From: Escherichia coli
Lineage (GTDB): Bacteria > Pseudomonadota > Gammaproteobacteria > Enterobacterales > Enterobacteriaceae
Length of the DNA: 64,000 nucleotides
NCBI GenBank assembly: GCA_020819635.1
Contig: GCA_020819635.1_4533.1
Direction: 5' to 3' (one strand)
Positions 21,331-57,026 of the stretch are shown here, piece after piece. Numbering within the stretch: the first letter of the stretch is position 1; each line of letters opens with the position of its first letter. Position numbers and translations under genes: made by a program. The notes below the pieces were generated by a model. The model ran no database searches. It was not told where the DNA came from and worked only from the letters and a program-made list of their open reading frames with translations.

Positions 21331-22272
21331 ATGGTGTTAATTGGTAGCCGTGCATTGCAAATTCATGCTATGGACATGGGAAAAGACTTGTATCGCCCTT
21401 GTGTAGATTTAGATTACCTGTGTACAGAACAAGAGTGGGAAGAATTATCAAAAATGTTCTCTCAAGAGGAGTTTGTTGAACTTGTAGAACGTAAAGGAAA
21501 CAAAGGCCATGTCAAAATGATAGCTGGTGCACATTTGGAATACGATATTGCTTCTCAAGGAGATAGCACAGAAGCTTTGATTAGTTATTGTGAAGATTCT
21601 GATGATGTTCGTCGAACTTACGCTGGACATGTTGTTGCTCCTTTAGATGTGCTCTACCTTCTTAAAATGAGTCATCGTTTTAAAAAGGATAGTCCTCACT
21701 TCTTTAAAACTATGAAAGATATTCATTTCATGCGGTCACTGGGCGCAAAGATCCCAGAAAATCTTAAGAGTATTTATGAGTTGCGTGAGAAAGAAACATA
21801 CACTTACTCTCATCCGAACTTAAACGTAAAAAGTAAAGACTTTTTTAAAGGTGATGAGGTTCCGTATGTTTATGATCATGATTCTATCCATGAAGCAATC
21901 GCGGTAATGGATGCTCCGGCATATAAATCTTATATGAAAGATGGAAGTGAAGTTATGACCAGCAAAGAAAAGTTTTTTGCTCAACCAAAACATGTGCGCC
22001 TGTTAGGTGTTTATGAAGAAGCGTGTGTTTTGGCTTTGGAACGTTCACAAATTCCTTTCGGTGGAGAGATCGGAGGTCCAACCCCTAAGCAAAGTTTTAT
22101 AATGGCTTTATCTAAAGTCTGCACATCCATCACTAGTGGTTGGTTTAGGGAATATGCTTGGGAAAACTTTTATGTTGTTATTAAGCTATATGAAAACATG
22201 GGCGAAAACGACTATGTTGAACGTTTTAAAGCTAATCAACATGTAGTAAAGCCTTTTGAAGGAGGTTATTAA
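21331..22272 (+). CDS. hypothetical protein, possible nucleotidyltransferase-like N-terminus
   Basis: 313 aa; LIGSRAL...DLD loosely resembles a Pol-beta-type GS...DxD motif; weak. Confidence 0.45.
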   Translation: MVLIGSRALQIHAMDMGKDLYRPCVDLDYLCTEQEWEELSKMFSQEEFVELVERKGNKGHVKMIAGAHLEYDIASQGDSTEALISYCEDSDDVRRTYAGHVVAPLDVLYLLKMSHRFKKDSPHFFKTMKDIHFMRSLGAKIPENLKSIYELREKETYTYSHPNLNVKSKDFFKGDEVPYVYDHDSIHEAIAVMDAPAYKSYMKDGSEVMTSKEKFFAQPKHVRLLGVYEEACVLALERSQIPFGGEIGGPTPKQSFIMALSKVCTSITSGWFREYAWENFYVVIKLYENMGENDYVERFKANQHVVKPFEGGY

Positions 22273-22669: not shown

Positions 22670-23345
22670 AACAGTTTTGTCTATGTTTGACGGATCTGGG
22701 ATCATGGTGTTACGTTATGCCGAAGCAGGTCACAAGTGTTTTTGTGTAAACGCTGATGAAGGGGATCACGGTAAATACGAGGTTAGGATGGAGCACCCAA
22801 ACATAACCTATGTTAATGCCTGGATAGATTCTACATTCAACCCTGAAGATCATGGGATACCTAAACCCGATATTATTTTTGGATTTCCACCTTGCACTAT
22901 GTTAGCAGGTAGTGGTAGCAAACACGAACGCAGCACAGAGGAATTGGATGAAGCTTTAGCTAATATTCGTGTAGTGGAAGCTTTGGGTAACAAATATAAT
23001 GTTCCTTGGATGATTGAGAACCCAGTAGGTAAACTTTCAACCTTATGGCGTAAACCCGATTTTTACTTTGATCCTTATGAGTATGGTGGGTATTTGTTTG
23101 AAGAGGAAGGAAGCTTTCATCCTAAAATGCCTACCCGTGATGGGTATACAAAGAAAACTTGTATTTGGCACGGCAATGGTTTTGTTCAACCAGTGAAGAA
23201 ACCAGTAGATCATATAGGCTGCTTCTGGGGTTGGAAAAGCTTAGGTGGAGCTAGTGCAAAAACAAAACAACTTAGATCACTAACCGCACGTGGTTTTGCT
23301 CGTGCAGTGTTTTTGTCTAACAATATTCTAGATAAGGAGAAATAA
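22662..23345 (+). CDS. C5-cytosine methyltransferase-like protein, minimal (catalytic core only)
   Basis: motif I-like LSMFDGSG, catalytic PC motif GFPPCT, ENV-like WMIENPVG; only about 228 aa, no recognisable target-recognition domain or motifs IX/X. Confidence 0.5.
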   Translation: MSKTVLSMFDGSGIMVLRYAEAGHKCFCVNADEGDHGKYEVRMEHPNITYVNAWIDSTFNPEDHGIPKPDIIFGFPPCTMLAGSGSKHERSTEELDEALANIRVVEALGNKYNVPWMIENPVGKLSTLWRKPDFYFDPYEYGGYLFEEEGSFHPKMPTRDGYTKKTCIWHGNGFVQPVKKPVDHIGCFWGWKSLGGASAKTKQLRSLTARGFARAVFLSNNILDKEK

Positions 23346-23998
23346 TGTTAAATTCAAAACCAGTGGTTGCTTATCAAGTAGATCGTAATGATGGTGAAGG
23401 AAGTGTTGTTATTTTCAGTACACACGGTCTTGAGGCTCGTCGAAAAGGTGCATATCGTTTAGAATGTGAGTTTGAAGACTGCACAAGCCACCGTGTCAAA
23501 CAATTCGATCAATATGCTGATAAAGGCTTCGTCCCTATCAAAGCGTTACTGGAAGATGGTTGGTGGGTATATTCTGCTTTTGATTACTCAAAACTGGAGG
23601 AGTCAGCTTCGTGCGCCTCCGAGATCGAATATGATGATTACTATGACACTCTATACCTTCCAGAATGGCTTGTCTTTTCTCCTGATGAGAGAAGTGTCTG
23701 GAAAACGTGGGAAGAAATGGAGAGACATGCGTATAGCATCAATGAAGCTTTAGATCGTAAAGCTTGGTTTATTGAGGCAGTAAAGGCGGCATACCCCCAA
23801 TTCTCATTCTGTGATTTCACTGGCGGCCCAGGATACATTACACATACAGCCTCTTTTGAGTTTCCTGGTTCACGTTATAAGGGTAATGTTTATTGGGACT
23901 GGGATGAAAATAAACAACCTTCGGCTCAAGACTTCCGTTGCTATGTTTGTCAAGGCGATCAAGAAGCCCTTGACAAATACCTACAAAGTCTGGTATAG
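23345..23998 (+). CDS. hypothetical protein
   Basis: 217-aa ORF, ATGA-coupled to upstream MTase-like gene. Confidence 0.5.
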   Translation: MLNSKPVVAYQVDRNDGEGSVVIFSTHGLEARRKGAYRLECEFEDCTSHRVKQFDQYADKGFVPIKALLEDGWWVYSAFDYSKLEESASCASEIEYDDYYDTLYLPEWLVFSPDERSVWKTWEEMERHAYSINEALDRKAWFIEAVKAAYPQFSFCDFTGGPGYITHTASFEFPGSRYKGNVYWDWDENKQPSAQDFRCYVCQGDQEALDKYLQSLV

Positions 23999-24015
23999 TG
24001 CCAGCATCTGAACAA

Positions 24016-24046
24016 AGCCTCCTGTTTCAGGGGGCTTTTCTTTTAT
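24016..24046 (+). terminator. intrinsic terminator
   Basis: AGCCTCCTG...CAGGGGGCT imperfect hairpin followed by TTTTCTTTT. Confidence 0.5.
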
Positions 24047-24056
24047 AGGAGGGAAT

Positions 24057-24542
24057 ATGTTTCAAGTAAATGTCAATGTGCATAATAGTTACTCTGATTG
24101 TGAAACGTGTGGCTATAATTCATCTAATGTTATTCGTATTAGTGGCGATTTAGGAGAAGCTTCTTTTGGAGAAGAAGCAAGTTGCTTTAGTGGTATGGAT
24201 GCAGAATGGAATGATATTGCACATTGGTTAGTGAGCAAACTAAAAGAAAAAGAGAAACCATTTCCTACTCTGCTTGATCGTTCTCTTGTGGAAGATGCAG
24301 GTAAAGCATATGCAGACTATGCGTATGCAGACGGGAAATATTTGGAAGATGATAAGGCTAACCATTTGCTTTATGTTTACTATGAAGCTGAATCTGCCTA
24401 CGATAATTATTACAGCATGTCTAACATCCTACGTCTGTTTGCAGAGTTTGATATTTATTTCGAAGTAGAATTTTCAGAAGATGATACTTACGAGTACAAT
24501 TCTTATGATCCATTTGAGGAGGAAGAATGCCAAGACGAGTGA
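24057..24542 (+). CDS. hypothetical acidic protein
   Basis: 161-aa ORF, D/E/Y-rich. Confidence 0.45.
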   Translation: MFQVNVNVHNSYSDCETCGYNSSNVIRISGDLGEASFGEEASCFSGMDAEWNDIAHWLVSKLKEKEKPFPTLLDRSLVEDAGKAYADYAYADGKYLEDDKANHLLYVYYEAESAYDNYYSMSNILRLFAEFDIYFEVEFSEDDTYEYNSYDPFEEEECQDE

Positions 24543-25342
24543 TTTTTGTAAGCGGTGCAGGTTTAAGTGCAGACAGTGGGATTCGAACATTTAGAACAGA
24601 CACAGATAGTGGTCGTGCTTTATGGGAAGAATATGATTTAGAAGAGGTCTGCGATATTGGAGCTTTCCAAGCAGGTTATCGTGTTAGAACATCTCCAGAT
24701 CTTCCAGTGGTCGGTGGTGTAGACGAGAACGGTATGGATTTGTATGCCAAAACACACGAATTTTATAACAAAAGACGTGTTGAGCTTAAAGATGTACAAC
24801 CTAATGCTGCACATATTCAAATAGCAAAGTGGTTTAAGGAATATCCTAACCAAATAGTAAACTTGACAACAAACGTTGATGATCTACTAGAGCGAGCAGG
24901 TGTAGACAGAGATTCTGTTATTCACGTACACGGATATCTTCCTGAAGTAGTTTACCGTATGCATCCTGGAGATTACAAAACACTGGTAGATATTGGTTAC
25001 AATAGTATAAACATAGATGATTATAACTGGGTGAAGCCTAATGTTGTATTTTTTGGTGAGGCTGCACCTTTGTATGCAGATATGGCTCACTTGTTCGATA
25101 CTTTGACCATGCAAGATTTGGTTGTAGTAGTAGGATGTTCAAACCAAGTTATCAATTTTAATTGGGAATTATTTCCTGCACTTAGTATGGGTACAAAAAT
25201 GGTTGTAGTTAACCCTGGAGTTAATTACGAAGAAACACTTCTCTATGAAGATCGTGGAGTTTTTGTTTACCGAGAAAAAGCTGCAACAGCCTTCAGCAAT
25301 GAAGGTTTCATTAAAATGGTCGAAGACCACTTAAACAAATAA
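24527..25342 (+). CDS. Sir2-family (sirtuin-like) NAD-dependent protein, lacking zinc ribbon
   Basis: GAGLSADSGIRTFR, TTNVDDLLERAG, HVHG, VVFFGE motifs match the Sir2/CobB catalytic core; no CxxC...CxxC zinc module. Confidence 0.75.
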   Translation: MPRRVIFVSGAGLSADSGIRTFRTDTDSGRALWEEYDLEEVCDIGAFQAGYRVRTSPDLPVVGGVDENGMDLYAKTHEFYNKRRVELKDVQPNAAHIQIAKWFKEYPNQIVNLTTNVDDLLERAGVDRDSVIHVHGYLPEVVYRMHPGDYKTLVDIGYNSINIDDYNWVKPNVVFFGEAAPLYADMAHLFDTLTMQDLVVVVGCSNQVINFNWELFPALSMGTKMVVVNPGVNYEETLLYEDRGVFVYREKAATAFSNEGFIKMVEDHLNK

Positions 25343-25351
25343 ACCACTCAA

Positions 25352-25373
25352 GGGGCTTCGGCCCCTTTCTTAT
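25352..25373 (+). terminator. intrinsic terminator with UUCG tetraloop
   Basis: GGGGC-TTCG-GCCCC followed by TTTCTTATT. Confidence 0.6.
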
Positions 25374-25385
25374 TAGGAGAATAAA

Positions 25386-25658
25386 ATGACTGAAGAAATC
25401 CGTGATTACTACCTTGCACATTACGTTTACTACTTTGCCAATGCTACACAAAAAGGGGAAGGTAATCTTTACTTGGCAACAGGACATGGAACAGGCGTTA
25501 GGAAATCAAATATTGATAATGCCTTGGCTCAAGTGGCTGCGGGGCTAGAAGATAAACTTCAAACACCTGTAGTTGTAGTGATGCAAAATATAAGTTACCT
25601 AGCAAGTTGTACTGAAACCGAATTTAACGCGTCTGAGACGCAATCTAACGAAGAATAA
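25386..25658 (+). CDS. hypothetical protein
   Basis: 90-aa ORF, last plus-strand gene of block. Confidence 0.45.
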   Translation: MTEEIRDYYLAHYVYYFANATQKGEGNLYLATGHGTGVRKSNIDNALAQVAAGLEDKLQTPVVVVMQNISYLASCTETEFNASETQSNEE

Positions 25659-25662
25659 AACA

Positions 25663-25695
25663 AAGGCACCCACTTGGGTGCCTTTTCTATTTTAG
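25663..25695. terminator. bidirectional intrinsic terminator at convergent block boundary
   Basis: GGCACCCA-cttg-GGTGCC flanked by A-run upstream and T-run downstream. Confidence 0.6.
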
Positions 25696-46192: not shown

Positions 46193-46492
46193 TTAGATCG
46201 CTGTTTCCAGTAGTTCGGCTAACGTCTTACCGCCTGATAGTTGGTCTAACGTTTGCTGTTCCGGCAAGAAATTAGCTGATATTAATCCGACTTGATTCCC
46301 TTTGTGCCAATTAGCTTGACGGATGATTCCATCCTTTAAGGATTTTACCGCCATTGTGCAACCGTCGCCAAATGATTCATTTTTATGATCCATCACTTCA
46401 TAAGCGCCCAGCTTGCTGCTGTTAGGTACCATTAACGCGAATACATCACCAACAACCAGTTTTTCTACGGTAACAATAGCGATAGTTTCCAT
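46193..46492 (-). CDS. hypothetical protein
   Basis: 99-aa ORF. Confidence 0.5.
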   Translation of the reverse strand: METIAIVTVEKLVVGDVFALMVPNSSKLGAYEVMDHKNESFGDGCTMAVKSLKDGIIRQANWHKGNQVGLISANFLPEQQTLDQLSGGKTLAELLETAI

Positions 46493-46510
46493 TTTATTTT
46501 CCTCATTATC

Positions 46511-46567
46511 GGCGGCACCATTGCCGCCCTACGTGGTAAATATTATCACACTGGCGATCCGTGTCAA
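46511..46567 (-). promoter_or_regulatory. promoter plus stem-loop cassette (PeSL-like)
   Basis: minus strand TTGACA, 16-nt spacer, TAATAT, then GGCGGCA-ATGG-TGCCGCC. Confidence 0.6.
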
Positions 46568-46573
46568 TACTTT

Positions 46574-46960
46574 TTATTCAATATAAATCAAATTATCTTC
46601 ACCAATGTAAGCCGACACGTTCGGCATAAACTTAGCTGCATTGGTTAAGCGGTTGGCTGTGTTAGTGGTGTATATTTCAGGGCGATCCCAAAATCCTACG
46701 CCGTGACCGTTACGGGTAAAATGTAAATCATTCCCGATTTGGTTGGCTGTAGCGCCGTCGCTCATTGCCTCAGAGATAGCGGCAAGATTAGCATTAATAA
46801 AGGCTGTTACATCCTGGGCGATCCGTTGATGGGCTTGATCTGAAAAATCATAATCAGTCATGTCATCTATAAAATTACCTTTGTGATCCCTGGCTGATTC
46901 AGCAAAAATAAAGGCTTCTTTGTAGCCGTTGATGATTTCAATAATGATTTCTGTTTTCAT
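46574..46960 (-). CDS. hypothetical protein
   Basis: 128-aa ORF. Confidence 0.5.
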   Translation of the reverse strand: MKTEIIIEIINGYKEAFIFAESARDHKGNFIDDMTDYDFSDQAHQRIAQDVTAFINANLAAISEAMSDGATANQIGNDLHFTRNGHGVGFWDRPEIYTTNTANRLTNAAKFMPNVSAYIGEDNLIYIE

Positions 46961-47181
46961 GCTGTACGCTCGACAATAATAATAGTTTGCGGGATCTCGT
47001 TTTCTACTACTAACAAGGCTTTTTTCTGCGTAATAGATATTTTAACACGTTGTAACGTGGCGGTAAAGTCTTTCATCTCATTATGCGCGGATTTAGTGCA
47101 ATGCCATATTTCAGGTTTACCAATTTGCAAGCCGCGTAAAAATTCTGTTTTACCTGTCTTATTCGTGATCATTTGATTCAC
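46957..47181 (-). CDS. hypothetical protein
   Basis: 74-aa ORF. Confidence 0.4.
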   Translation of the reverse strand: MNQMITNKTGKTEFLRGLQIGKPEIWHCTKSAHNEMKDFTATLQRVKISITQKKALLVVENEIPQTIIIVERTA

Positions 47182-47307
47182 CTTAACCGATACCGTGGGA
47201 AGATAGGATCATGTTAGCCATAGTTGCAACCACTCCAACCGATAACGCCAGGCCCACTATTACAACCGTGAAAATTTTCTCTAACATGATTCTACCCTCA
47301 TTAATGG

Positions 47308-47350
47308 GCGTTGCCTTATTGCCCCGCCCTATTGACGGCGGGGAATACTC
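47308..47350 (-). promoter_or_regulatory. tandem GC-rich stem-loops (hairpin-only copy)
   Basis: GGGCG...CCGCCC and GGCGGGG...CCCCGCC; coordinates approximate. Confidence 0.35.
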
Positions 47351-47365
47351 CCCCCGCCTCATTAA

Positions 47366-47572
47366 TTATTCTTCATCGTCGCCGTTATAGTATTCAATGC
47401 CGTTTTCATCGGTTACAGTGATGTTAACGCCACCGATAGCAACACGATCACGGGCAAACGTCATAGCTTCATTTAAATCTTCAGACCAAAAAATATTGTG
47501 ACCTTTGCGCGATACATAAAACATAGTCGGGATCATGATTTGTTTCTCTTCTGTTGTGAGCGGCTGGACCAT
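47366..47572 (-). CDS. hypothetical protein
   Basis: 68-aa ORF; start uncertain (ATG lies inside the cassette hairpin). Confidence 0.4.
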   Translation of the reverse strand: MVQPLTTEEKQIMIPTMFYVSRKGHNIFWSEDLNEAMTFARDRVAIGGVNITVTDENGIEYYNGDDEE

Positions 47573-47622
47573 TCCGCCGCTCTATGTAATAAACTTTACT
47601 ACGTTGTTTGCCTACTGTCAAA
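47559..47622 (-). promoter_or_regulatory. promoter plus stem-loop cassette (PeSL-like)
   Basis: TTGACA, 17-nt spacer, TAAAGT, then GAGCGGC...GCCGCTC. Confidence 0.5.
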
Positions 47623-47907
47623 TTATTTTTTAATGTTTTGCCCTACAAAATTGATCACTTCCTTAAGCTGTCTCTCTGTCATGATCGTACCTGGTAATTC
47701 TTCTTTTATTTCTTCCGGTAAATAGATATTACCGCGCCAGGTTAACAAACAACCGTTTTGATCTTCGCAGATAGAATAAGAAAACATCCATTCGCAATCA
47801 TTTTCAAGCTCCCAAAAACACAAAAAGTCTTCTTTCCCTAAGTTTTCAACGGTTAAACATAATCCGCGACGTGCTGCATAATTAGTTAGGCTTTTTGTGA
47901 TTTTCAT
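47623..47907 (-). CDS. hypothetical protein
   Basis: start set at MKITKSL; ORF-table extension translates the hairpin. Confidence 0.45.
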   Translation of the reverse strand: MKITKSLTNYAARRGLCLTVENLGKEDFLCFWELENDCEWMFSYSICEDQNGCLLTWRGNIYLPEEIKEELPGTIMTERQLKEVINFVGQNIKK

Positions 47908-47928
47908 GATTTTTCTCTCTTCTTGTGA

Positions 47929-47985
47929 GCGGCACCATTGCCGCCCTACAAGATACATATTACCAGACTACGCGGACTTGTCAAA
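47929..47985 (-). promoter_or_regulatory. promoter plus stem-loop cassette (PeSL-like)
   Basis: TTGACA, 16-nt spacer, TAATAT, then GCGGCA-ATGG-TGCCGC. Confidence 0.6.
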
Positions 47986-48105
47986 CTATTTTTTCTTTTT
48001 CTTTGCTTCCAACCGTCTAAGGTTACGGCTTGACTTATTGCGCAAGGCGCTTAGATCATCATACCCTTTCCAGGCTTGCATGTCTTTCGGATTCATGTTA
48101 TCCCC

Positions 48106-48384
48106 TTAACGGTTGTAAATATTGTGGATAGTGATAAAGGCGCTACGGTCATAAGCTGCCAAATCAGGATTGATCCAAGTGTTATCTAACAGTGTTTCAA
48201 GGATAATCGAATCATCATGAATAGCATCATAAAAATCGGGGCTAACAATAGTGTCAATATCATTTTCCGTTAATTCTGCATTCAGCTTGCAAACCGCTTG
48301 CAAATCTGCTTCACGCTTCCAATCTTGCAGATTAGTAGTCAGCACTTGTTCGATTTCTTCGGTGGATAATTTGGTGATGGTCAT
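48106..48384 (-). CDS. hypothetical protein
   Basis: 92-aa ORF. Confidence 0.5.
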   Translation of the reverse strand: MTITKLSTEEIEQVLTTNLQDWKREADLQAVCKLNAELTENDIDTIVSPDFYDAIHDDSIILETLLDNTWINPDLAAYDRSAFITIHNIYNR

Positions 48385-48403
48385 GATTCTATCTCTCTGT
48401 TAG

Positions 48404-48460
48404 GCGGGGCGCTTGTCGCCCCTATGTGATACATCTTATCAGGTTGATTCAGCTTGTCAA
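48404..48460 (-). promoter_or_regulatory. promoter plus stem-loop cassette (PeSL-like)
   Basis: TTGACA, 16-nt spacer, TAAGAT, then GGGGCG-acaag-CGCCCC. Confidence 0.6.
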
Positions 48461-48461
48461 G

Positions 48462-48662
48462 TTATTTGTTAGCCGGATTATATGCCAGGATCGCGCCACT
48501 TGCTTTCACGCTTTCCGTTTCATAGCTGCGCAAGTTGTCTTCTGTAAGATTGAGCGCGATCACTTCCTCGATCTCAACGTCAGCGGCAAGGGCGATCTCT
48601 TTGATAATGTCTGTTGTTTTCATAGTATGTACCTTATAAGATGATTGATAAGATAGTGACAA
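48462..48662 (-). CDS. hypothetical protein
   Basis: 66-aa ORF. Confidence 0.45.
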   Translation of the reverse strand: MSLSYQSSYKVHTMKTTDIIKEIALAADVEIEEVIALNLTEDNLRSYETESVKASGAILAYNPANK

Positions 48663-48777
48663 CGAAAGCGATTATACTGATGGCAAATGTCATCTTTTTA
48701 CCTTCGGATACTGCCGGATTTTCTACCGTGTATTCTACTGTGTACTTGCTCATCGTGTAATCCTCTCGTTTGCTTTG

Positions 48778-48833
48778 GGAACTATTCCCGCCGCCTTATG
48801 AATTAAATATACACTATCTCAAAATTATTGCAA
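48778..48833 (-). promoter_or_regulatory. promoter plus stem-loop cassette (PeSL-like)
   Basis: TTGCAA, 16-nt spacer, TATATT, then GGGAA-tag-TTCCC. Confidence 0.5.
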
Positions 48834-48848
48834 GCCTTTTCTAAATTT

Positions 48849-49133
48849 TTATGCAGTAAACAAACCATCATTTACAACGGCGGCGATGATCTCCCGTGCC
48901 ATTGATTCAGGGAAAGGGGCGCTATAGTCCTGGCTTGTCTCGTCGGTATCAGTGATCCAATGATAAGCTAACGAGTAAAAGCCTTTACTAACTGTTTTCA
49001 GTGAGATGATGATCACTCGGTCAAGCTTATTGGTGAATGTTGCCGTTAATGTGTTACCCTCCTGCGTCATGTTGGACAAGTAAGCGGGATCATTAATCAG
49101 GGAAAACATTAGCACGGTGTTAGCTTTACTCAT
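48849..49133 (-). CDS. hypothetical protein
   Basis: start set at MSKANTV. Confidence 0.45.
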   Translation of the reverse strand: MSKANTVLMFSLINDPAYLSNMTQEGNTLTATFTNKLDRVIIISLKTVSKGFYSLAYHWITDTDETSQDYSAPFPESMAREIIAAVVNDGLFTA

Positions 49134-49149
49134 GATTGCATCCTCAAAT

Positions 49150-49168
49150 GGGCGCGGCACCATTGCCG
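49150..49168 (-). promoter_or_regulatory. 5'-UTR stem-loop with weak upstream promoter
   Basis: GGCGGCA-ATGG-TGCCGCGCC; -35 not canonical. Confidence 0.4.
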
Positions 49169-49204
49169 CCCTACACGATAACTATAACACAATGTAAAAC
49201 AGGA

Positions 49205-49411
49205 TCAACCTTTATTTTTCCACGGTGTCAGTTTGTTAATCATTGGTGATAAATAACGTTTACCAACGTAAAACAGCACGCCAACTGATGCAACGGCGGC
49301 GATCTCATGCATAGCCGACGGGAAACGGGTATCATAATAAGATCCAATAATAGCAATAGCGGCAACGGCTGCAACGTCGATAATGATTTTTTCTTGTTTT
49401 GCGGTGATCAT
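49205..49411 (-). CDS. small membrane protein
   Basis: 68 aa, hydrophobic AAVAAIAIIGSY segment. Confidence 0.45.
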   Translation of the reverse strand: MITAKQEKIIIDVAAVAAIAIIGSYYDTRFPSAMHEIAAVASVGVLFYVGKRYLSPMINKLTPWKNKG

Positions 49412-49433
49412 AATATTTACCTTTTTGTATGGT

Positions 49434-49490
49434 GGGGAACTATTCCCCGCCTGATGTAATACAGTTTAACAGGTCCGGTTATGGTGTCAA
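49434..49490 (-). promoter_or_regulatory. promoter plus stem-loop cassette (PeSL-like)
   Basis: TTGACA, 16-nt spacer, TAAACT, then GGGGAA-tag-TTCCCC. Confidence 0.6.
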
Positions 49491-49496
49491 CCACTT

Positions 49497-49682
49497 TTAA
49501 AGATATTTTATACTGATAACGTTTTCCGGTTTAACCTTGTTGTGATGTGCATCAACATAGATCAAACCATCGTCAGAAAAGCCCAGGATCACGCCCTGCG
49601 CAATAAAACCGTATTCGTCACGGTAACGCACGGCTATTTTTAATGTTGCGTTGTAGGCTGTTTTAAGCTCGTTTAAAGTCAT
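49497..49682 (-). CDS. hypothetical protein
   Basis: 61-aa ORF. Confidence 0.4.
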   Translation of the reverse strand: MTLNELKTAYNATLKIAVRYRDEYGFIAQGVILGFSDDGLIYVDAHHNKVKPENVISIKYL

Positions 49683-49702
49683 TTTTGTTTATCCTCTACA
49701 TG

Positions 49703-49735
49703 TAAAAAGAAAGGGCGCTAGATGCGCCCTTGTTA
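49703..49735 (-). terminator. intrinsic terminator
   Basis: GGGCGC-atcta-GCGCCC hairpin with flanking T-run. Confidence 0.5.
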
Positions 49736-49902
49736 TGTTAATCCTCTAAATCCATCCAATTATATTTGTCACTCTTCCCGCGCTTTGTTTTATTGCGCTT
49801 GTCGCCTTTGCGGATCACTTCCTCATTCCAGGCCTTGCGGATCTTGGAAGATTGAATTTTTTCTGCGCGATTAGATGTATTCATTTTGTTTCCTCTTTAT
49901 AT

Positions 49903-49957
49903 GAGCGGCACCATTGCCGCTATATTATTAATTTAAACTGTTTTGTAAAATTGTCAA
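49903..49957 (-). promoter_or_regulatory. promoter plus stem-loop cassette (PeSL-like), compressed
   Basis: TTGACA, 16-nt spacer, TAAATT, hairpin GCGGCA-ATGG-TGCCGC. Confidence 0.5.
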
Positions 49958-49963
49958 GGTTTA

Positions 49964-50317
49964 TCATTCATAAGAGCAAGCAAGGATCACGCCTGCAATA
50001 TAAAGCCAATAATTTTCCCTTTCTCGTTGGATTTTATCATCGCTGCTATTCTCTTTAATGTATCCCCAGGATGTTAACAAGCGATCCACTTCCCAATATT
50101 CGAAAGCGATATTAATGTCTGATGGCAAACCTTGTAACCATGATGCAAGTGCTTTAACAATACTATAATTAAAACGTGATTGGTTATCAGGGTACCAGTA
50201 TTCGGAATTAAAACGGCGCATCAATTCCGCGATCTTCTCTTTTTCGGTTGTAATACCATAATCATTAAAATCGATAGCGGCAAGGATGTACTCTTTAATT
50301 GCATTTTGTGCTTTCAT
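49964..50317 (-). CDS. hypothetical protein
   Basis: 117-aa ORF. Confidence 0.5.
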   Translation of the reverse strand: MKAQNAIKEYILAAIDFNDYGITTEKEKIAELMRRFNSEYWYPDNQSRFNYSIVKALASWLQGLPSDINIAFEYWEVDRLLTSWGYIKENSSDDKIQRERENYWLYIAGVILACSYE

Positions 50318-50336
50318 GGTCTTTCTCTCTTTTTTA

Positions 50337-50393
50337 GCGGGAACTCTTCCCGCCCTATGTGTAACAGTTTACTGAAAATTAAATCTGTGTCAA
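50337..50393 (-). promoter_or_regulatory. promoter plus stem-loop cassette (PeSL-like)
   Basis: TTGACA, 16-nt spacer, TAAACT, then GCGGGAA-gag-TTCCCGC. Confidence 0.6.
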
Positions 50394-50396
50394 GTT

Positions 50397-50618
50397 TTAT
50401 TTTGTTACTACCATTTGGTACCCTGTTTCAATGTTGCTAAACACTGTTATCCCGTCCTGGCGTTCACTCATTAGCATACAAGGCGCTAACATCCTTTCTA
50501 CTGCCTTGCACTCGTTGTAAACGGCGGTTATATCTCCTGCTGCCTTGTCTTCTGTAGTAAATGTCTCATTTACGTAAACTTGACCAGCGACAACGGCGAC
50601 AATAGCAAAAGTGATCAT
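50397..50618 (-). CDS. hypothetical protein
   Basis: 73-aa ORF. Confidence 0.45.
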   Translation of the reverse strand: MITFAIVAVVAGQVYVNETFTTEDKAAGDITAVYNECKAVERMLAPCMLMSERQDGITVFSNIETGYQMVVTK

Positions 50619-50691
50619 GATGTTTTTCTCTTTATGTGTTTCGATTAGTTGATATTACAGCAATTCACAGATTAGTTTTTAGCAATTCGTG

Positions 50692-50910
50692 CTATTTACT
50701 CATAACAGTATCGAAAACAAATTTTTCTTTGTTGTCAAAGCTCACGTATCCGATTCGACCACGCAAGCCGCGAGTAGTGCCGTATTCGTAACCGTCAAGA
50801 CCTTTAACCTTCCAATCCACGCCCATTAAAACCGCATTATATTTCTGACCAACTACAAACGCGCCACCAGTTGATTCAATGCAAACAACTTTAATTTTAC
50901 GGATTGCCAT
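50692..50910 (-). CDS. hypothetical protein
   Basis: 72-aa ORF. Confidence 0.45.
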   Translation of the reverse strand: MAIRKIKVVCIESTGGAFVVGQKYNAVLMGVDWKVKGLDGYEYGTTRGLRGRIGYVSFDNKEKFVFDTVMSK

Positions 50911-50950
50911 TTTCTTTCTCTCTTTCTGGTGATTGGTTTCTCTTCTCTAT

Positions 50951-50985
50951 AGCGCCCATTATAAGGCGCTATAACGAAAAGTCAA
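50951..50985 (-). promoter_or_regulatory. sigma70-like promoter with -10 inside a palindrome
   Basis: TTGACT, 16-nt spacer, TATAAT; the -10 sits in the loop of TATAGCGCC...GGCGCTATA. Confidence 0.55.
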
Positions 50986-51178
50986 CGATTATTTTTAAGG
51001 CTTAAAGTACCTAACTTGTCAGCATGACGCAGACCAGGGAAGATCCATTTTCCTGATTCATCTTTTACAGGGGCTTTAAGCGTAGCGCCTAGGTTGGCGG
51101 CGTTAACTTTACGTGCAACGTTGCGAGCGGCTTCACGGGTAGCGAAAGTGATCATGGTGTTTTCCTCTTCTCTTTGTT

Positions 51179-51241
51179 AGGCGGTGGACCATTCCGCCGC
51201 CTTGATGTAATACAGTTTACTTTATTTTTGCAGTATTGCAA
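51179..51241 (-). promoter_or_regulatory. promoter plus stem-loop cassette (PeSL-like)
   Basis: TTGCAA, 16-nt spacer, TAAACT, then GGCGGCGG...CCACCGCC. Confidence 0.55.
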
Positions 51242-51247
51242 GCGGTT

Positions 51248-51460
51248 TTATGAAATAATCGTCAAAGTAAAATTGTAATCACCTGATTGATATAATACTT
51301 TATCACCGAACGTTCCAACACGTTTAACATTGCAATATATACCCATAACACTTTTTACATCTTTGATATTCTTCACGCCTGTAATGTCTTTATTGAAATA
51401 CTCGTCATCTGAAAATAAAACTTGACTTGCATTTTTTAACAGTGTGCGGATATTAGCCAT
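51248..51460 (-). CDS. hypothetical protein
   Basis: 70-aa ORF. Confidence 0.45.
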   Translation of the reverse strand: MANIRTLLKNASQVLFSDDEYFNKDITGVKNIKDVKSVMGIYCNVKRVGTFGDKVLYQSGDYNFTLTIIS

Positions 51461-51483
51461 CGTAATAATCTCTCTTCTGTTGT

Positions 51484-51541
51484 GAGCGGCACCATTGCCG
51501 CCCTATGTAATACAGTTTACTCTTTTTCTTTCCGGTGTCAA
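51484..51541 (-). promoter_or_regulatory. promoter plus stem-loop cassette (PeSL-like)
   Basis: TTGACA, 16-nt spacer, TAAACT, then GCGGCA-ATGG-TGCCGC. Confidence 0.6.
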
Positions 51542-51550
51542 CAATCTTTT

Positions 51551-51778
51551 TCAGATCAATTCATCCAGGCATAACAGGCGATCAACGTTGAGATCGGTTA
51601 GGCTGATGGTTGGCACCTGGTAGGATTCGATGTACTCGACGCTTGCATATTCCCCAAAATTAGCAATAGCCCACTTATTCAAGATCTCACATACATCATT
51701 AATCTTTTTGTTTGTTACAACTGCAATAACCTGGGAAGTGCCAACGGTGCCGGATACGCGAACAATATTGATAGCCAT
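51551..51778 (-). CDS. hypothetical protein
   Basis: 75-aa ORF. Confidence 0.45.
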   Translation of the reverse strand: MAINIVRVSGTVGTSQVIAVVTNKKINDVCEILNKWAIANFGEYASVEYIESYQVPTISLTDLNVDRLLCLDELI

Positions 51779-51799
51779 AATCTTTAATCTCTCTGTTGT

Positions 51800-51859
51800 T
51801 GGCGGGAAACCACTTCCCGCCCTATGTGATACATCTTACACTAATTTTAAACGTTGTCA
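51800..51859 (-). promoter_or_regulatory. promoter plus stem-loop cassette (PeSL-like)
   Basis: TTGACA, 16-nt spacer, TAAGAT, then GCGGGAA-gtggt-TTCCCGC; near-identical to the copy at 54746. Confidence 0.6.
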
Positions 51860-51869
51860 ACTGTTTTTA

Positions 51870-52109
51870 TTACATTCCAACCATTGCAGCACGGATCGCC
51901 GTAGTGCTATACTTGAATCCGTCCGGCGTTGTAGTAGTACCGTTGGCTTTTAATCTGCGGTACATACATTCCGCAGCAATATCTTTAGTTCTACTTTGTG
52001 CGATGCAACTTTGAGCAAGCCGATACAATGACTCACCGTTATTAATCCATAAGGAAACATTCCAATGAGTTTTGTTTTTGTGACCTAAGAACATTTTAGA
52101 TTTAGCCAT
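51870..52109 (-). CDS. hypothetical protein
   Basis: 79-aa ORF. Confidence 0.45.
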   Translation of the reverse strand: MAKSKMFLGHKNKTHWNVSLWINNGESLYRLAQSCIAQSRTKDIAAECMYRRLKANGTTTTPDGFKYSTTAIRAAMVGM

Positions 52110-52132
52110 GATTTTTCTCTCTTTTTCAGTGA

Positions 52133-52192
52133 GGCGGGAAGTGTTCCCGCTCTCTATGTAATACAGTTTACTCTTTTTATTGGTGCTGTCAA
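52133..52192 (-). promoter_or_regulatory. promoter plus stem-loop cassette (PeSL-like)
   Basis: TTGACA, 16-nt spacer, TAAACT, then GCGGGAA-cac-TTCCCGC. Confidence 0.6.
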
Positions 52193-52198
52193 TGCTTT

Positions 52199-52564
52199 TT
52201 ATAAATCTTTTTTACGTTTAACATCGCTCGCATGACTGTATACAGTGATCCCATTGTCACGGCAAAAACGGGAAAGATACGCGCCGCGTGAAAACTCTTT
52301 ACCTTCCATATTAATAACCTTGCTAAACTCTTCCAGGGCGACGGTATCAAAATGATCACCATAGCCATATTGAAACGGAACGTTAACCACCTCGATCAGT
52401 TTACCGCCGATCTCAACGTCAACCATTAAAGAAAAATATGTGTTACCGTAGGACTGTTGAAACCAGCGACGGGCGCTAATATGCACCGCCTCAATGCTGG
52501 ATAATTCAATTTTAGCCGTGTTAGCCAGGGTAGCATAAGCGGAAACATTGATATTAATAGCCAT
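52199..52564 (-). CDS. hypothetical protein
   Basis: 121-aa ORF. Confidence 0.5.
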   Translation of the reverse strand: MAININVSAYATLANTAKIELSSIEAVHISARRWFQQSYGNTYFSLMVDVEIGGKLIEVVNVPFQYGYGDHFDTVALEEFSKVINMEGKEFSRGAYLSRFCRDNGITVYSHASDVKRKKDL

Positions 52565-53560: not shown

Positions 53561-54123
53561 AGACTATTTTCAAAGTTTTCTAGTGCGATCCTTTTTTCTT
53601 CCTCTGTCGGCTGATAATCAGGAAAAGCATCAACACACAACAACGGCGGGATCTCTTCGTACTCTTCCTCTTCCGTTGTCTCCTCGTCTTCCTCCTGGGC
53701 TATGGCTGCAATTTTGGCTAATTTTCTTTCAGCTTGAATCAATTTACCATCAAGTACGTTTTTTGCCATGTTGTAAGCGGTCCAGGTGATGCGCTTACTT
53801 TCCAATGCTTCATCAAGCGCCGCTATCTTGCTGGGGTATTCATCCAGGACACGAAAAGCCGGATCAATTTTGTACAAAGGATTATCTTTCGCGCCGTCGC
53901 TCGCATCTTCCGCACTGGATAAATCAGCGTTACCATTTGCCAGCCAACCAGGGCGCACATAACGCGCTTTTACGTTGCCGTTACTACGTGCTAATCTGTT
54001 ACCTATTTGCTCACCGCTATATCCCGTGGATTCATCGATAAGATGATCGGGAATGATGCGCGGATCATCTGCTTCATGTTTTACCCAAGACTGGATCACA
54101 TATTCGCGGCCCATATTAACCAC
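53557..54123 (-). CDS. hypothetical protein with acidic C-terminal region
   Basis: 188-aa ORF; start uncertain. Confidence 0.5.
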   Translation of the reverse strand: MVNMGREYVIQSWVKHEADDPRIIPDHLIDESTGYSGEQIGNRLARSNGNVKARYVRPGWLANGNADLSSAEDASDGAKDNPLYKIDPAFRVLDEYPSKIAALDEALESKRITWTAYNMAKNVLDGKLIQAERKLAKIAAIAQEEDEETTEEEEYEEIPPLLCVDAFPDYQPTEEEKRIALENFENSL

Positions 54124-54373
54124 CTTTTTTCAACAATTGGCATACTTTAAAAAGACTTGCTGAATCCTTGCAAGGGTAGAAAGATGTACGATAATCACGT
54201 ACGCCAACCTTGCGGATCTCGATGTTTTCGCATGTTGTTTGATCAAAGATATTTATTTCATCACGCCCCCTTATATAAACATAGTGGGGATGTATTAACG
54301 CATATTTTGCTAATCTGTAAAAAGCGTTATCTTTGAACGCGATCACGTGACCTTTTAATTTGATGTAAAACAT
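54116..54373 (-). CDS. hypothetical protein
   Basis: 85-aa ORF. Confidence 0.45.
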   Translation of the reverse strand: MFYIKLKGHVIAFKDNAFYRLAKYALIHPHYVYIRGRDEINIFDQTTCENIEIRKVGVRDYRTSFYPCKDSASLFKVCQLLKKGG

Positions 54374-54390
54374 TCTACCACCTTACAAAT

Positions 54391-54446
54391 AGCGGGAACT
54401 ATTCCCGCTTTATGTAACATATTAACAAATTATTCGTTAATGTCAA
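54391..54446 (-). promoter_or_regulatory. promoter plus stem-loop cassette (PeSL-like)
   Basis: TTGACA, 16-nt spacer, TAATAT, then GCGGGAA-tag-TTCCCGC. Confidence 0.6.
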
Positions 54447-54449
54447 GCC

Positions 54450-54722
54450 TTAAAGCAAAAACGCTACATCTTGCGCTTTTAGTGTAGTATCAACCATTTT
54501 TGGGCTTTTATAATCAACAAAGCGCGCGGTTTTTTCAATAGCGAAACCGAGATAATCTTGTTTATTGAATTTACATTCTTTCTTAAATGTTTCCCGCGCC
54601 ACGGTGATCGCTGCGTCCAGGGATAAACGCCCGTCAATGTTGATGTTAGCGAAAGATCCGCCACCGCTCATAGGTTTACCAGTTGTGCCAGCTACGATCA
54701 TTGTTGCGCTATATGATGCCAT
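54450..54722 (-). CDS. hypothetical protein
   Basis: 90-aa ORF. Confidence 0.45.
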   Translation of the reverse strand: MASYSATMIVAGTTGKPMSGGGSFANINIDGRLSLDAAITVARETFKKECKFNKQDYLGFAIEKTARFVDYKSPKMVDTTLKAQDVAFLL

Positions 54723-54745
54723 GATGATAATCTCTCTTCTGTTAC

Positions 54746-54806
54746 GAGCGGGAAACCACTTCCCGCCCTATGTGATACATCTTATCAGGTTGTTGTTTGT
54801 TGTCAA
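54746..54806 (-). promoter_or_regulatory. promoter plus stem-loop cassette (PeSL-like)
   Basis: TTGACA, 16-nt spacer, TAAGAT, then GCGGGAA-gtggt-TTCCCGC. Confidence 0.6.
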
Positions 54807-54812
54807 TAGTTT

Positions 54813-55012
54813 TTATTCTATTCCTGCGATTTGATTAACGCGCTTGCATTTTGTAGCGTGCTGGTCTTCTGTAATGACTCCCATTTCTAACAGGGAATCA
54901 ATGAAAGATAAAACCGTTTCATGATCATCCTGGGGGTGACTGAACTCAGTAAAACCGTTTACCACTACGTTGATTTGTCCAGCTTTCGCCACAATGTGCA
55001 ATGTTGCCATGA
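54813..55012 (-). CDS. hypothetical protein
   Basis: start set at MATLHIVAK; ORF-table extension (LVGRQWCRS) translates the hairpin. Confidence 0.45.
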
Positions 55013-55028
55013 TCTTAACTCCAAATAG

Positions 55029-55088
55029 TGAGCGGCACCATTGCCGCCCTACAAGATGAATACTACGCCGCCGCCTGGTTAACGTCAA
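55029..55088 (-). promoter_or_regulatory. promoter plus stem-loop cassette (PeSL-like), first of array
   Basis: TTGACG, 17-nt spacer, TAGTAT, then GGCGGCA-ATGG-TGCCGC. Confidence 0.55.
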
Positions 55089-55196
55089 CCATTTTTCAAT
55101 CTTTTTTATTTTCTTTTTGCTTGCTATATATAAAGAAAAGGGCTATTATCTTTCTACCGCGCCAACCAGGGCGCACAACAAAGAAAGGGCGATATC

Positions 55197-55463
55197 ATGA
55201 CAAATACTACATTACACCTTATGCACTCATTGGGCTGGCAAGGCGGCACGGTGCACCAGGTAGCAAGCGCAACGGGCTTAAAGGTTGAAACCGTTCTCAA
55301 CCTGGGCGATCATAAGGTGGAAGAGATAGATCATTTTGATACGTTCGCAAATGGTTATCTATGGGCTTGCAGTGGCGGCGGGGAAAGCAAGATACCACCA
55401 GGGGCGCGGGGCGATATGTATTTTTGGTTAGGTGTCCTATCCTGGCAAGAAAACAAAAAATAA
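55197..55463 (+). CDS. hypothetical protein (isolated plus-strand ORF)
   Basis: 88-aa ORF with AAGGG RBS; GC-richer than surroundings; reality uncertain. Confidence 0.3.
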   Translation: MTNTTLHLMHSLGWQGGTVHQVASATGLKVETVLNLGDHKVEEIDHFDTFANGYLWACSGGGESKIPPGARGDMYFWLGVLSWQENKK

Positions 55464-55465
55464 TC

Positions 55466-55494
55466 TTGACAAGCCCAGGGATCGGGCTTATACT
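55466..55494 (+). promoter_or_regulatory. strong sigma70-like promoter
   Basis: TTGACA, 17-nt spacer (itself an AGCCC...GGGCT inverted repeat), TATACT. Confidence 0.5.
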
Positions 55495-55499
55495 GTTTT

Positions 55500-55700
55500 A
55501 CATACAGAAGAGGAAGCGCCACCCCACGGCGTAAAGGCGGGGCTAACATACCAGGGGGCACTGGTTGGAAGGTTGATCGCCGGTAGGCTGGGTGCTATAT
55601 ATTTGTAAAGAAATGTAAAGATAAAATAATCGCTTGCTTTCCTGGCTGGATCTGTTATTCTTATTACATGGCGAGGGGACACGGGAGCGCGAGACAAACA
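55500..55700 (+). ncRNA. candidate small non-coding RNA, GC-rich and structured
   Basis: directly downstream of a consensus promoter; no plausible ORF; locally GC-rich in an AT-rich genome; only Pro/Arg-rich antisense ORFs. Confidence 0.2.
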
Positions 55701-55722
55701 CCGCCCCTGCGCGTCATTCTCT

Positions 55723-55838
55723 AAATGAGAATGATTGTCATTTACCTTATTAAATAAGAATCAATCTCATTTATAAACTTAAATGCGAATCATTATCATT
55801 TGCATTTCCATATGAGAACTCTTCTCATTTTCACCTGC
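55723..55838. repeat. four tandem 29-bp repeats with palindromic core (operator or iteron-like)
   Basis: copies start at 55723, 55752, 55781 and 55810 (exact 29-bp period); core aAATGaGAATnaTtnTCATTT with inverted-repeat symmetry. Confidence 0.6.
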
Positions 55839-55851
55839 ATAAAAATTTTTG

Positions 55852-55910
55852 TAAACTTTAAATTTTGCTTTTGTACTTTCATTTTTGTAAAAGCAAAAAA
55901 ACTTTAAATA
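55852..55910. repeat. AT-rich direct repeat, copy A (about 58 bp)
   Basis: TAAACTTTAAATTTTGCTTTTGTACTTTCATTTTTGTAAA...ACTTTAAATA; about 85% identical to copy B. Confidence 0.5.
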
Positions 55911-55989
55911 CTGTGGGCGCGCAAAATTTTTAAAATTTTCCTTGACTTTTGAGTTTTGTTTTGTATCTAACATTTTAAGATAATTTTCC

Positions 55990-56047
55990 TAAACTTTAAA
56001 TTTTGGTTTTCAACTTTCACTTTTGTAAATTCTTAAAAAGTTTAAAT
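55990..56047. repeat. AT-rich direct repeat, copy B
   Basis: TAAACTTTAAATTTTGGTTTTCAACTTTCACTTTTGTAAA...GTTTAAATA, 138 bp downstream of copy A. Confidence 0.5.
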
Positions 56048-56177
56048 AATTTGAGGGATTTTTGAGATAAAAGATAGTGGGAATTTGATATAACCTTTAA
56101 TCTTATTGGTAAACCTTCAGGAACCCACTCAGATCGAATCCTAGTGATGCAAACTGAAAAAGACAAGGGTTTGTATA

Positions 56178-56216
56178 GGACAAAATAACAGGCTCTCTAC
56201 GGTGCTGTAGGAGCCT
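56178..56216 (-). terminator. intrinsic terminator of the minus-strand operon
   Basis: minus strand AGGCTCCTACAGCACCGTAGAGAGCCT hairpin followed by GTTATTTTGT. Confidence 0.5.
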
Positions 56217-56271
56217 TATTTCTGTGCTACAAAGTGACACCTTTGTTCTAAAAATGAAAAAAGTTAAAATA

Positions 56272-56814: not shown

Positions 56815-57026
56815 TTTTTCATGCCTTCTAAAACTTTAGCTTGCCCGTCTTGAAAAGCTTTCATCAGAACTATCTTAAGATTGACTTCCAAACGTTCTTC
56901 ATCCTCTCTATAACAATCCAACACTGCTTTAAGTTCATCATAGTGGTTCAGAATAGGTTTAAAGATTTCATGATCTGCTAAACGTGCCATAGTTTCTCCT
57001 TTGTTAGTCCATCCACCAGTAGCCAT
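56811..57026 (-). CDS. hypothetical protein
   Basis: 71-aa ORF. Confidence 0.4.
   Translation of the reverse strand: MATGGWTNKGETMARLADHEIFKPILNHYDELKAVLDCYREDEERLEVNLKIVLMKAFQDGQAKVLEGMKK

Follow-up and report, generated by a model that had tools for sequence, protein, structure and literature searches.

Within a 64,000-nucleotide stretch of an Escherichia coli assembly (GCA_020819635.1, contig GCA_020819635.1_4533.1; hereafter the window, with positions counted from its first letter) we have analysed a phage gene for a Sir2-like protein, or sirtuin, at positions 24527 to 25342. The best explanation of the results is that this sirtuin belongs to a phage-type clade derived from the class III sirtuins (CobB, Sir2Af1 and SIRT5-like). 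Its activity, its substrate and its role in infection we infer: the reading that we favour, with a probability of about 0.45, is that of an active protein deacylase that would apply the standard sirtuin chemistry to acyl-lysine, with a preference for acidic acyl groups. The gene is already known, and so are the absence of its zinc site and the existence of a phage-specific clade. Sirtuins are present in well-studied T5-like and rV5-like coliphages.

Sequence, predicted fold and clade of the sirtuin

The sequence-only reading of this DNA had proposed a phage-encoded Sir2-like protein, and this was borne out by the profile searches. SIR2 (PF02146) is the sole Pfam match of the protein (E=1.9e-22, 80.5 bits against a cutoff of 24), PHROG 2162, “Sir2 (NAD-dependent deacetylase)” (NAD, nicotinamide adenine dinucleotide), aligns with it end to end (residues 2-271, E=2.8e-104), and its best solved relative is CobB of E. 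coli (1s5p, E=7.6e-19). Judged by these scores, the assignment to the sirtuin family is far beyond chance. An AlphaFold2 model built on 60 homologues (mean predicted local distance difference test, pLDDT, 91.3; predicted template modelling score 0.87) predicts a Rossmann-fold large domain and a small domain, and the best structural matches found for it with Foldseek were CobB (E=2.9e-17, template modelling score 0.85 on the target), then Sir2Af1 and SIRT5, all of class III. The protein is thus class III-like by its structural neighbours and by the YxxR pair listed below, but it is not a CobB equivalog. It had also been called a “minimal” sirtuin, a description that does not fit a protein of 271 residues (against 279 in CobB) that keeps the small domain and carries an insertion of 20-26 residues. 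The features of the gene, all on the plus strand, are as follows.

24527..25342, plus strand: sirtuin gene, open reading frame of 271 codons plus stop, with ATG start
24516-24522, plus strand: Shine-Dalgarno sequence GAGGAGG, read from the sequence, 4 nucleotides 5' of the ATG and within the 3' end of the upstream gene
24554..24595, plus strand: GAGLSADSGIRTFR, residues 10-23, Rossmann NAD-phosphate loop and F22-R23 pair
24665..24739, plus strand: lineage-specific insertion in the small domain, approximately residues 47-71, modelled at pLDDT ~91-95
24764..24775, plus strand: Y80-N-K-R83, the YxxR motif of class III sirtuins, aligned with CobB Y92/R95
24866..24901, plus strand: TTNVDDLLERAG, residues 114-125, variant of the TQN(I/V)D nicotinamide/ribose pocket in which Thr115 replaces the canonical Gln (TQN to TTN)
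24923..24934, plus strand: HVHG, residues 133-136, in which His135 aligns with the catalytic His147 of CobB
24935..25042, plus strand: equivalent of the zinc module, residues 137-172, with no Cys
25043..25060, plus strand: VVFFGE, residues 173-178, substrate loop, in which V173/F176 align with V187/F190 of the CobB acyl-lysine tunnel
25133..25159, plus strand: GCSNQVINF, residues 203-211, variant of the GTS...V(Y)P stretch with Cys204 for Thr (GTS to GCS), Asn210 for Pro and V208 retained

We have used two alignments, one of the window protein with five other phage sirtuins and CobB, and a larger one that adds 140 representatives at 50% identity from a HMMER scan (147 sequences in total). All four motifs that had been quoted as matching the sirtuin core are present (residues 10-23, 114-125, 133-136 and 173-178), and the catalytic His, whose loss on careful alignment would have spoken against the proposal, is kept: His135 and G136 are invariant in 147/147 sequences, as are G10, G12, N116 and G203, while R23, D118 (141/147), F176, E178 and Y80 are nearly so. 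Among the 60 phage homologues the loop residues G10, A11, G12, S14, F22 and R23 are all invariant (and near-invariant as a set in the 147), and so are Y80 and R83 and, in the substrate loop, V173, F175, F176 and E178, the latter being conserved both in the phage-type and in the zinc-type groups described below. The tunnel residues of CobB, I131, V187, F190 and V219, correspond to V117, V173, F176 and V208, again invariant in the 60 homologues. The claim that the NAD-binding motifs are intact holds for most of the residues (GAG, S14, F22, R23, N116, D118, S205 and N229) and is slightly overstated at two, where Thr115 stands for the canonical Gln and Cys204 for the Thr of GTS. The small-domain insertion is much less constant: the segment is 28-35 residues long in 38 of the 60 close relatives and only 9 residues long, i.e., without the insertion, in the other 22, and it is also absent from CobB and from the sirtuins of phages rV5, KB57, nt-1, BF and the T5-like Iris.

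The zinc ribbon had been described as absent, and this needs to be qualified. C42 and C204 are the only cysteines of the protein, with none between His135 and VVFFGE, and none of the CobB zinc cysteines (C155, C174, C176 and C177) is found in any of the six aligned phage sirtuins; C155 stands opposite a Tyr, and the other three stand opposite gaps. The module itself, though, has not been deleted: the segment is 37 residues long in the window protein (39 in CobB, 36-38 across the six phage proteins), and it is modelled as three strands (136-144, 152-155 and 168-173) at pLDDT ~95. Because the length is kept and the three-stranded model is confident, we read the segment as a zinc module whose ligands have been lost and whose fold, as modelled, is retained. 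Other zinc-free lineages exist among the relatives, and the four-Cys zinc site is common but not universal in sirtuins.

The loss of the zinc ligands goes together with the two changes at otherwise canonical positions. The 147 sequences comprise 46 that are zinc-free and without the Gln (the phage-type group), 72 that have both zinc ligands and Gln (the zinc-type group), and 15 and 14 in the two mixed classes (Fisher p=4e-13); as these groups are defined by two of the three coupled features, only the association with the GTS Thr is independent of the grouping, this Thr being found in 72/72 zinc-type sequences against 4/46 of the phage type, which have S, C or A instead. At position 115 the phage-type sequences have T, A, S or C, where each of the 72 zinc-type relatives has Q. 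The tunnel residues and the Y80/R83 pair, in turn, are equally conserved in the two groups (in the phage-type group, Y in 45/46 and R in 36/46). In a neighbour-joining tree, a rough distance tree that carries no support values, the six phage sequences (the T5-like, rV5, KB57, nt-1, BF and window sirtuins) fall in a clade of 25 tips, every one of them zinc-free and non-Gln, which is nested in a larger group that is zinc-free and almost wholly non-Gln; a separate zinc-free lineage that retains the Gln is placed near CobB. The deeper members of the zinc-free clade come mostly from metagenomic contigs, one of them from a Neptunomonas metagenome-assembled genome. A motif search for the phage clade in 185,579 species-representative genomes gave no confirmed relatives, with patterns that are narrow and do not show the whole clade to be restricted to phages; on the sequences compared, “phage-specific” holds for the T5/rV5/phAPEC8-type core only.

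In solved sirtuin-NAD complexes both the Gln of TQN and the Thr of GTS contact the cofactor. The signature suggests, as far as sequence comparison goes, an altered handling of the cofactor with an unchanged lysine pocket. That the whole phage-type clade has gone further and changed its reaction or its co-substrate, removing RNA 2'-phosphates in tRNA repair or using a modified NAD donor, is possible, but we would not expect it; it would mean a new biochemical activity for the sirtuin fold. A literature search found no work on the SIRT5 Q140 mutants that are present in the Protein Data Bank (PDB).

There is little to suggest that the gene is decaying. The ratio of non-synonymous to synonymous substitution rates (dN/dS) is 0.065-0.075 against orthologues of 97% identity, and 51 positions, including every catalytic residue, are invariant over the 60 homologues, the most distant of which are 55% identical. 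Computational criteria of the usual kind therefore indicate a functional gene under strong purifying selection. A non-catalytic remnant, inactivated when the zinc site and the canonical Gln disappeared, could be argued from the missing zinc ligands, from the two otherwise fixed residues that were lost and from the truncated, defective copy in phage DT57C (see below), but we find it very hard to believe in view of a dN/dS of ~0.07, of the invariant catalytic residues, of a fold predicted with confidence and of a zinc-free architecture that has been kept across lineages just 35-60% identical.

Distribution and genomic context

At the DNA level the gene shows 100% identity to gp056 of Escherichia phage vB_EcoM_Schickermooser (YP_009823722.1; Phapecoctavirus, Stephanstirmvirinae) and to its counterparts in several other phAPEC8-like phages, all annotated as Sir2 / NAD-dependent protein deacetylase; the window itself is a Phapecoctavirus. 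By tblastn, a homologue is found in 984 of 50,697 phage records (~2%), 289 of them from Salmonella phages, mostly T5-like. The identity to the window protein is 94-100% in phAPEC8-like phages, 50-62% in T5-like, 56-58% in Mydovirus/KB57-like, 46-47% in rV5-like and 36-37% in the KVP40/nt-1-like Vibrio phages. Two records labelled as Campylobacter jejuni phages are also among the carriers. In phage B15 (MG065650.1) the sirtuin and the RNA ligase are 98-99.7% identical to E. coli phapecoctavirus proteins, and in phage A141 (MG065672.1) the sirtuin is 46% identical to the window protein, the same as in rV5-like coliphages; the sequences suggest that these are mislabelled or contaminating coliphage genomes.

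Besides genome annotations we found two previous works that treat phage sirtuins. Skliros et al. (2016; PMC5107563) took CobB as the template for a model of the phiSt2/KVP40 homologue, noted the absence of the zinc ligands, listed T5 among the carrier phages and proposed the deacetylation of acetyl-CoA synthetase. Iyer, Burroughs, Anantharaman and Aravind (2022; PMC9503650, section 3.7.3), in a survey of viral NAD and ADP-ribose systems, placed most viral sirtuins in a distinct clade and predicted that it works in RNA repair like KptA/Tpt1.

We mapped gene order at 59 loci, with open reading frames called by a simple script; they amount to 21 lineages at 75% sirtuin identity, and the lineage counts reflect the content of IMG/VR and GenBank. 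Three unrelated contexts were found. In six phAPEC8-like lineages, the window included, the order is DUF7275 gene, small protein, DNA methyltransferase, gp058-like gene, in some cases a gp057-like or other small gene, and Sir2. In rV5/Mydovirus-like phages it is metallophosphoesterase, Rnl1 RNA ligase, cREC, AAA_33 kinase, Sir2, DNA ligase and MazG-like, as represented by KB57, while rV5 itself has Rnl1 RNA ligase, cREC (PF20274, E=3e-15) and Sir2. In T5-like phages NrdD and small proteins precede Sir2, and ~160 nucleotides 3' of it there is a HAD_SAK_2 phosphatase (“RNA repair”; PF18143, E=2e-20), followed further on by a primase. Pfam confirmed cREC_REC (PF20274), HAD_SAK_2 (PF18143), RNA_lig_T4_1 and AAA_33 among the neighbours. 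An RNA end-processing gene is found at 8 kb or less from the sirtuin in 9/21 lineages, which reproduces the linkage described by Iyer et al. (PMC9503650). No neighbour cluster is common to more than 7/21 sirtuin lineages, i.e., no conserved partner gene was found.

Some individual genomes deserve comment. In Serratia phage BF (NC_041917, record 53758-59617) the sirtuin lies with NMNAT-Nudix, Nampt, an Acb1/2H-like gene and a Nudix-cREC fusion; the 148-residue product annotated there as “RNA ligase” matches PF23474, the Acb1 phosphodiesterase directed against the cyclic-oligonucleotide-based anti-phage signalling system (E=3.6e-15), and is less similar to the 2'-5' RNA ligase family. A possible reading of the cluster is that of an island for NAD rebuilding and anti-signalling instead of RNA repair. 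The T5-like phage DT57C (NC_027356, record 46493-46765) has only a 90-residue sir2 remnant, annotated as “defective”. The HAD_SAK_2 gene found 3' of the sirtuin in other T5-like phages is missing there as well, which suggests a joint loss of the two.

In the window lineage none of the RNA end-processing genes looked for (cREC, 2H, HAD_SAK, Rnl1 and kinase) lies at 8 kb or less from the sirtuin. The phage type to which the window belongs does have a repair module (NC_048196, record 46461-52199), with cREC gp118, phosphoesterase gp115, Rnl1 gp114, AAA_33 kinase gp113, DNA ligase gp109 and MazG-like gp106, and this module and 10 tRNA genes are found ~30 kb from the sirtuin, just beyond the window, within which there are no tRNA genes. 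The window gene shows, then, that the sirtuin is separable from the RNA-repair module inside a genome that keeps both. The product of gp118 is annotated as hypothetical and matches a cREC profile that we built (E=1.7e-48); the order of the module is as in KB57 and rV5, minus the sirtuin and with the cREC gene on the other side of the phosphoesterase. In NC_048196 between 6,770 and 146,000 no NAD synthesis gene of the Nampt or NadR type is annotated. Far from the sirtuin (record 136123-136665) there is a protein with a RefSeq note citing DUF1768, which we take to be the NADAR family that removes ADP-ribose; it would be a further gene related to NAD and ADP-ribose in this phage type.

The immediate surroundings of the gene in the window are given by the following features.

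21331-22272, plus strand: protein of 313 residues with DUF7277 and DUF7275 domains (E=7.5e-76)
23345-23998: gp058-like neighbour, AlphaFold model of moderate confidence (pLDDT 72.6)
24014..24038, plus strand: terminator-like hairpin 5' of the two-gene unit, an annotated terminator in NC_048196
24057..24542, plus strand: upstream gene, 161 residues, isoelectric point 4.05, overlapping the sirtuin start by 16 nucleotides, PHROG 9509 of unknown function
25350..25367, plus strand: intrinsic-terminator-like hairpin AAGGGGC-TTCG-GCCCCTT with T-rich tail, directly 3' of the sirtuin stop, an annotated terminator in NC_048196

The sirtuin gene comes second in a compact unit of two genes and is probably co-transcribed and translationally coupled with the upstream gene. 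This gp057-like gene is found directly 5' of the sirtuin in only 3 of the 21 lineages, and its product gave no Pfam, NCBIfam or PADLOC match and nothing credible in a PDB profile search. In its acidic sequence, which ends in ...EEEECQDE, C15-x2-C18 and C43 are invariant in four homologues; it is possible, by these residues, that a metal-binding motif adjoins a sirtuin whose own zinc site is gone. The gp058-like gene, located one or two genes 5' of the sirtuin in six lineages, encodes a protein for which Pfam, NCBIfam and PADLOC gave no match and the PDB profile search was empty. In the 313-residue protein the N-terminus, LIGSRAL followed after 19 residues by DLDYL, looks like the motif of a minimal nucleotidyltransferase; Vibrio phage nt-1, whose sirtuin is only 36% identical, has a homologous gene at a distance of ~2.3 kb from that sirtuin. 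Among ten neighbour proteins no known RNA- or NAD-related domain was found, except for a calcineurin-like phosphatase 6 kb upstream.

A near-consensus sigma-70-like promoter (TTGACA-18-TATAGT, 11/12, with TG) lies on the plus strand in the region 23970-24038; its end, at 23999, falls within the final codons of the gene before it. As it stands before the strong hairpin at 24014-24038, its transcript would start with the terminator stem. Further on, at 25662-25685, a perfect 10-bp stem with T-runs flanking both sides resembles a terminator on both strands and marks the junction of the plus-strand block, whose last gene (25386-25658) encodes 90 residues, with a long block on the minus strand.

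Possible activities of the phage sirtuin

A deacylase or ADP-ribosyltransferase activity, as the sequence-only reading had proposed, is reasonable for such a sequence. If the protein is a deacylase, NAD+ would bind in the Rossmann cleft (GAG loop, F22/R23, N116, D118, S205 and N229), the oxygen nucleophile of the substrate would attack C1' of the nicotinamide ribose with release of nicotinamide, and His135 would then activate the ribose 2'-OH so that the adduct is resolved. The likeliest substrate would be acyl-lysine in a protein of the host or of the phage, and the Y80/R83 pair would confer a preference for succinyl, malonyl or glutaryl groups, as well as acetyl. We favour acyl-lysine because the conserved tunnel and the Y80/R83 pair would not obviously be needed by a substrate unrelated to lysine, and a protein would fit better than polyanionic RNA because the phage sirtuins, that of the window included, are acidic (isoelectric points 4.6-5.4, against 7.8 in CobB). 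A deacylase or deacetylase is also what the database annotators and the only paper modelling a phage homologue arrived at (PMC5107563). Were it correct, and the targets host proteins, phages would be rewriting the acyl-lysine proteome of the host during infection.

Several observations weigh against this reading. Two positions fixed in the zinc-type relatives have changed in a coupled way (the TQN Gln to T/A/S and the GTS Thr to S/C/A), and the Pro of the V-Y-P peptide-binding stretch has become Asn210. The scores with the NCBIfam CobB models remain far below their cutoffs (85.9 bits against 320 for NF040867 and 106.3 against 243 for NF001753). Deacylation does not explain why in related phages the sirtuin is found within an RNA end-healing and ligation module, and E. 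coli already has CobB, which makes it unclear what a phage would gain from a second enzyme. The sirtuin is, besides, an accessory gene, dispensable under laboratory conditions because DT57C holds only a defective remnant. Lastly, our literature searches on phage sirtuins turned up annotated genomes, the in-silico model of 2016 and the prediction from comparative genomics of 2022, and no experimental test.

The main rival explanation is that of RNA repair, published by Iyer et al. (PMC9503650), in which the enzyme would act like Tpt1/KptA, transferring the ADP-ribose of NAD+ onto an RNA 2'-phosphate, e.g., that of a tRNA cut by an anticodon nuclease of the host and then healed and ligated. The two chemical steps do parallel those of sirtuin deacylation, the linkages are reproduced in rV5, KB57, BF and T5-like phages (9/21 lineages), and the full module with 10 tRNA genes is present elsewhere in the window phage type. 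The clade-specific changes at cofactor-contacting positions could also reflect a changed reaction, and Y80/R83 might bind phosphate as well as carboxylate. Yet the window phage and five related lineages keep the sirtuin ~30 kb from the module, among neighbours without recognisable RNA function, and early auxiliary genes of large phages often cluster, so that linkage is weak evidence. At the level of whole genomes sirtuin and Rnl1 are only loosely associated: 680 phage records have the Rnl1-type ligase, chiefly those of phages of Escherichia, Pseudomonas, Vibrio and Streptomyces, with a mere 15 from Salmonella phages, against 984 (289 of Salmonella) for the sirtuin. A kinase, a metallophosphoesterase and Rnl1 together can heal and seal RNA as T4 Pnkp and Rnl1 do, a repair that leaves no 2'-phosphate to be removed. 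Moreover, a conserved, narrow and hydrophobic lysine tunnel in acidic proteins would be unexpected for a binder of structured RNA. On balance we regard RNA repair as unlikely, although it would give the sirtuin fold a new activity and phage tRNA repair a missing step.

Sirtuin chemistry also permits ADP-ribosyl transfer, as in SirTM and SIRT4/6, and the protein might be another kind of NAD-consuming effector, i.e., a mono-ADP-ribosyltransferase with host proteins or nucleic acids as its targets, or a regulated NAD-hydrolysing enzyme (NADase) or processor of NAD signals involved in takeover or counter-defence. Carrier phages often have NAD-rebuilding genes: in BF, Nampt and NMNAT-Nudix adjoin the sirtuin together with the Acb1-like gene, and NAD salvage genes in KVP40-type phages (PMC5107563) and NARP3 in a T5-like phage are further examples. 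The changes at positions 115 and 204 could alter the partitioning of the ADP-ribosyl intermediate. The same pathways can be turned against the idea, since consumption of NAD would oppose its rebuilding by the same phage; in addition, there is no adjacent gene for a macrodomain or other eraser, unlike in SirTM systems, no PADLOC match and no similarity to the NADase-type SIR2_2 effectors, and the conserved catalytic His and acyl-lysine tunnel would be needless in a plain NADase. We believe this to be improbable, and prefer the protein deacylase.

Some more specific candidates were rejected. A SIR2 of the defence type was set aside for want of a PADLOC match at E<=0.01, PF02146 being the only family found in a single-domain protein of a lytic phage genome. 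A toxin/eraser pair like SirTM was rejected as no Pfam macrodomain was found in the window neighbours nor among the annotated recurring neighbour clusters of the 21 lineage maps. Membership in the Tpt1/KptA family was discarded too, the 50 listed structural matches being all sirtuins with no Tpt1 among them, and Pfam giving SIR2 only.

Comparison with known systems

The closest known gene, gp056 of Schickermooser (PHROG 2162), is the same gene, with identical DNA and the same neighbours and terminators, and we see no difference between the two. The Sir2/CobB proteins of T5-like, rV5-like, Mydovirus, KVP40/nt-1-like and jumbo phages are 35-60% identical to that of the window, lack the zinc cysteines, have T or A for the Gln of TQN and fall in the same neighbour-joining clade. 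They differ in context, which in those phages is an RNA ligase/cREC/kinase module, HAD_SAK_2 or NAD salvage, whereas the window sirtuin has neighbours of unknown function, and many of them lack the insertion of 20-26 residues.

With the cellular enzymes CobB (1s5p, 6rxj), Sir2Af1 and SIRT5 the window sirtuin shares the GAG loop, FR, N-x-D, the catalytic His, FGE, YxxR and the tunnel residues. It differs from CobB and class III by its low identity (~26-27% in structural alignment), the missing zinc cysteines, Thr115, Cys204, Asn210 and the acidic isoelectric point. The likeness to Tpt1/KptA is one of proposed chemistry only, in which an oxygen nucleophile would receive ADP-ribose from NAD+ and the ribose 2''-OH would attack next; the proteins are not homologous, Tpt1/KptA being members of the ADP-ribosyltransferase superfamily (PMC9503650) and ours a Rossmann-fold sirtuin.

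The bacterial antiphage systems, in whose light the gene had been presented, are a less fitting comparison. ThsA, DSR1/2, SIR2-HerA, SIR2-pAgo and KomC have in common with the window sirtuin a distant superfamily kinship and the use of NAD+. The defence effectors (ThsA, DSR1/2 and others) are NADases of the SIR2_2 type triggered by infection, while the window protein matches PF02146 only, without a PADLOC match, and is a classical sirtuin of the CobB / Sir2Af1 / SIRT5 type.

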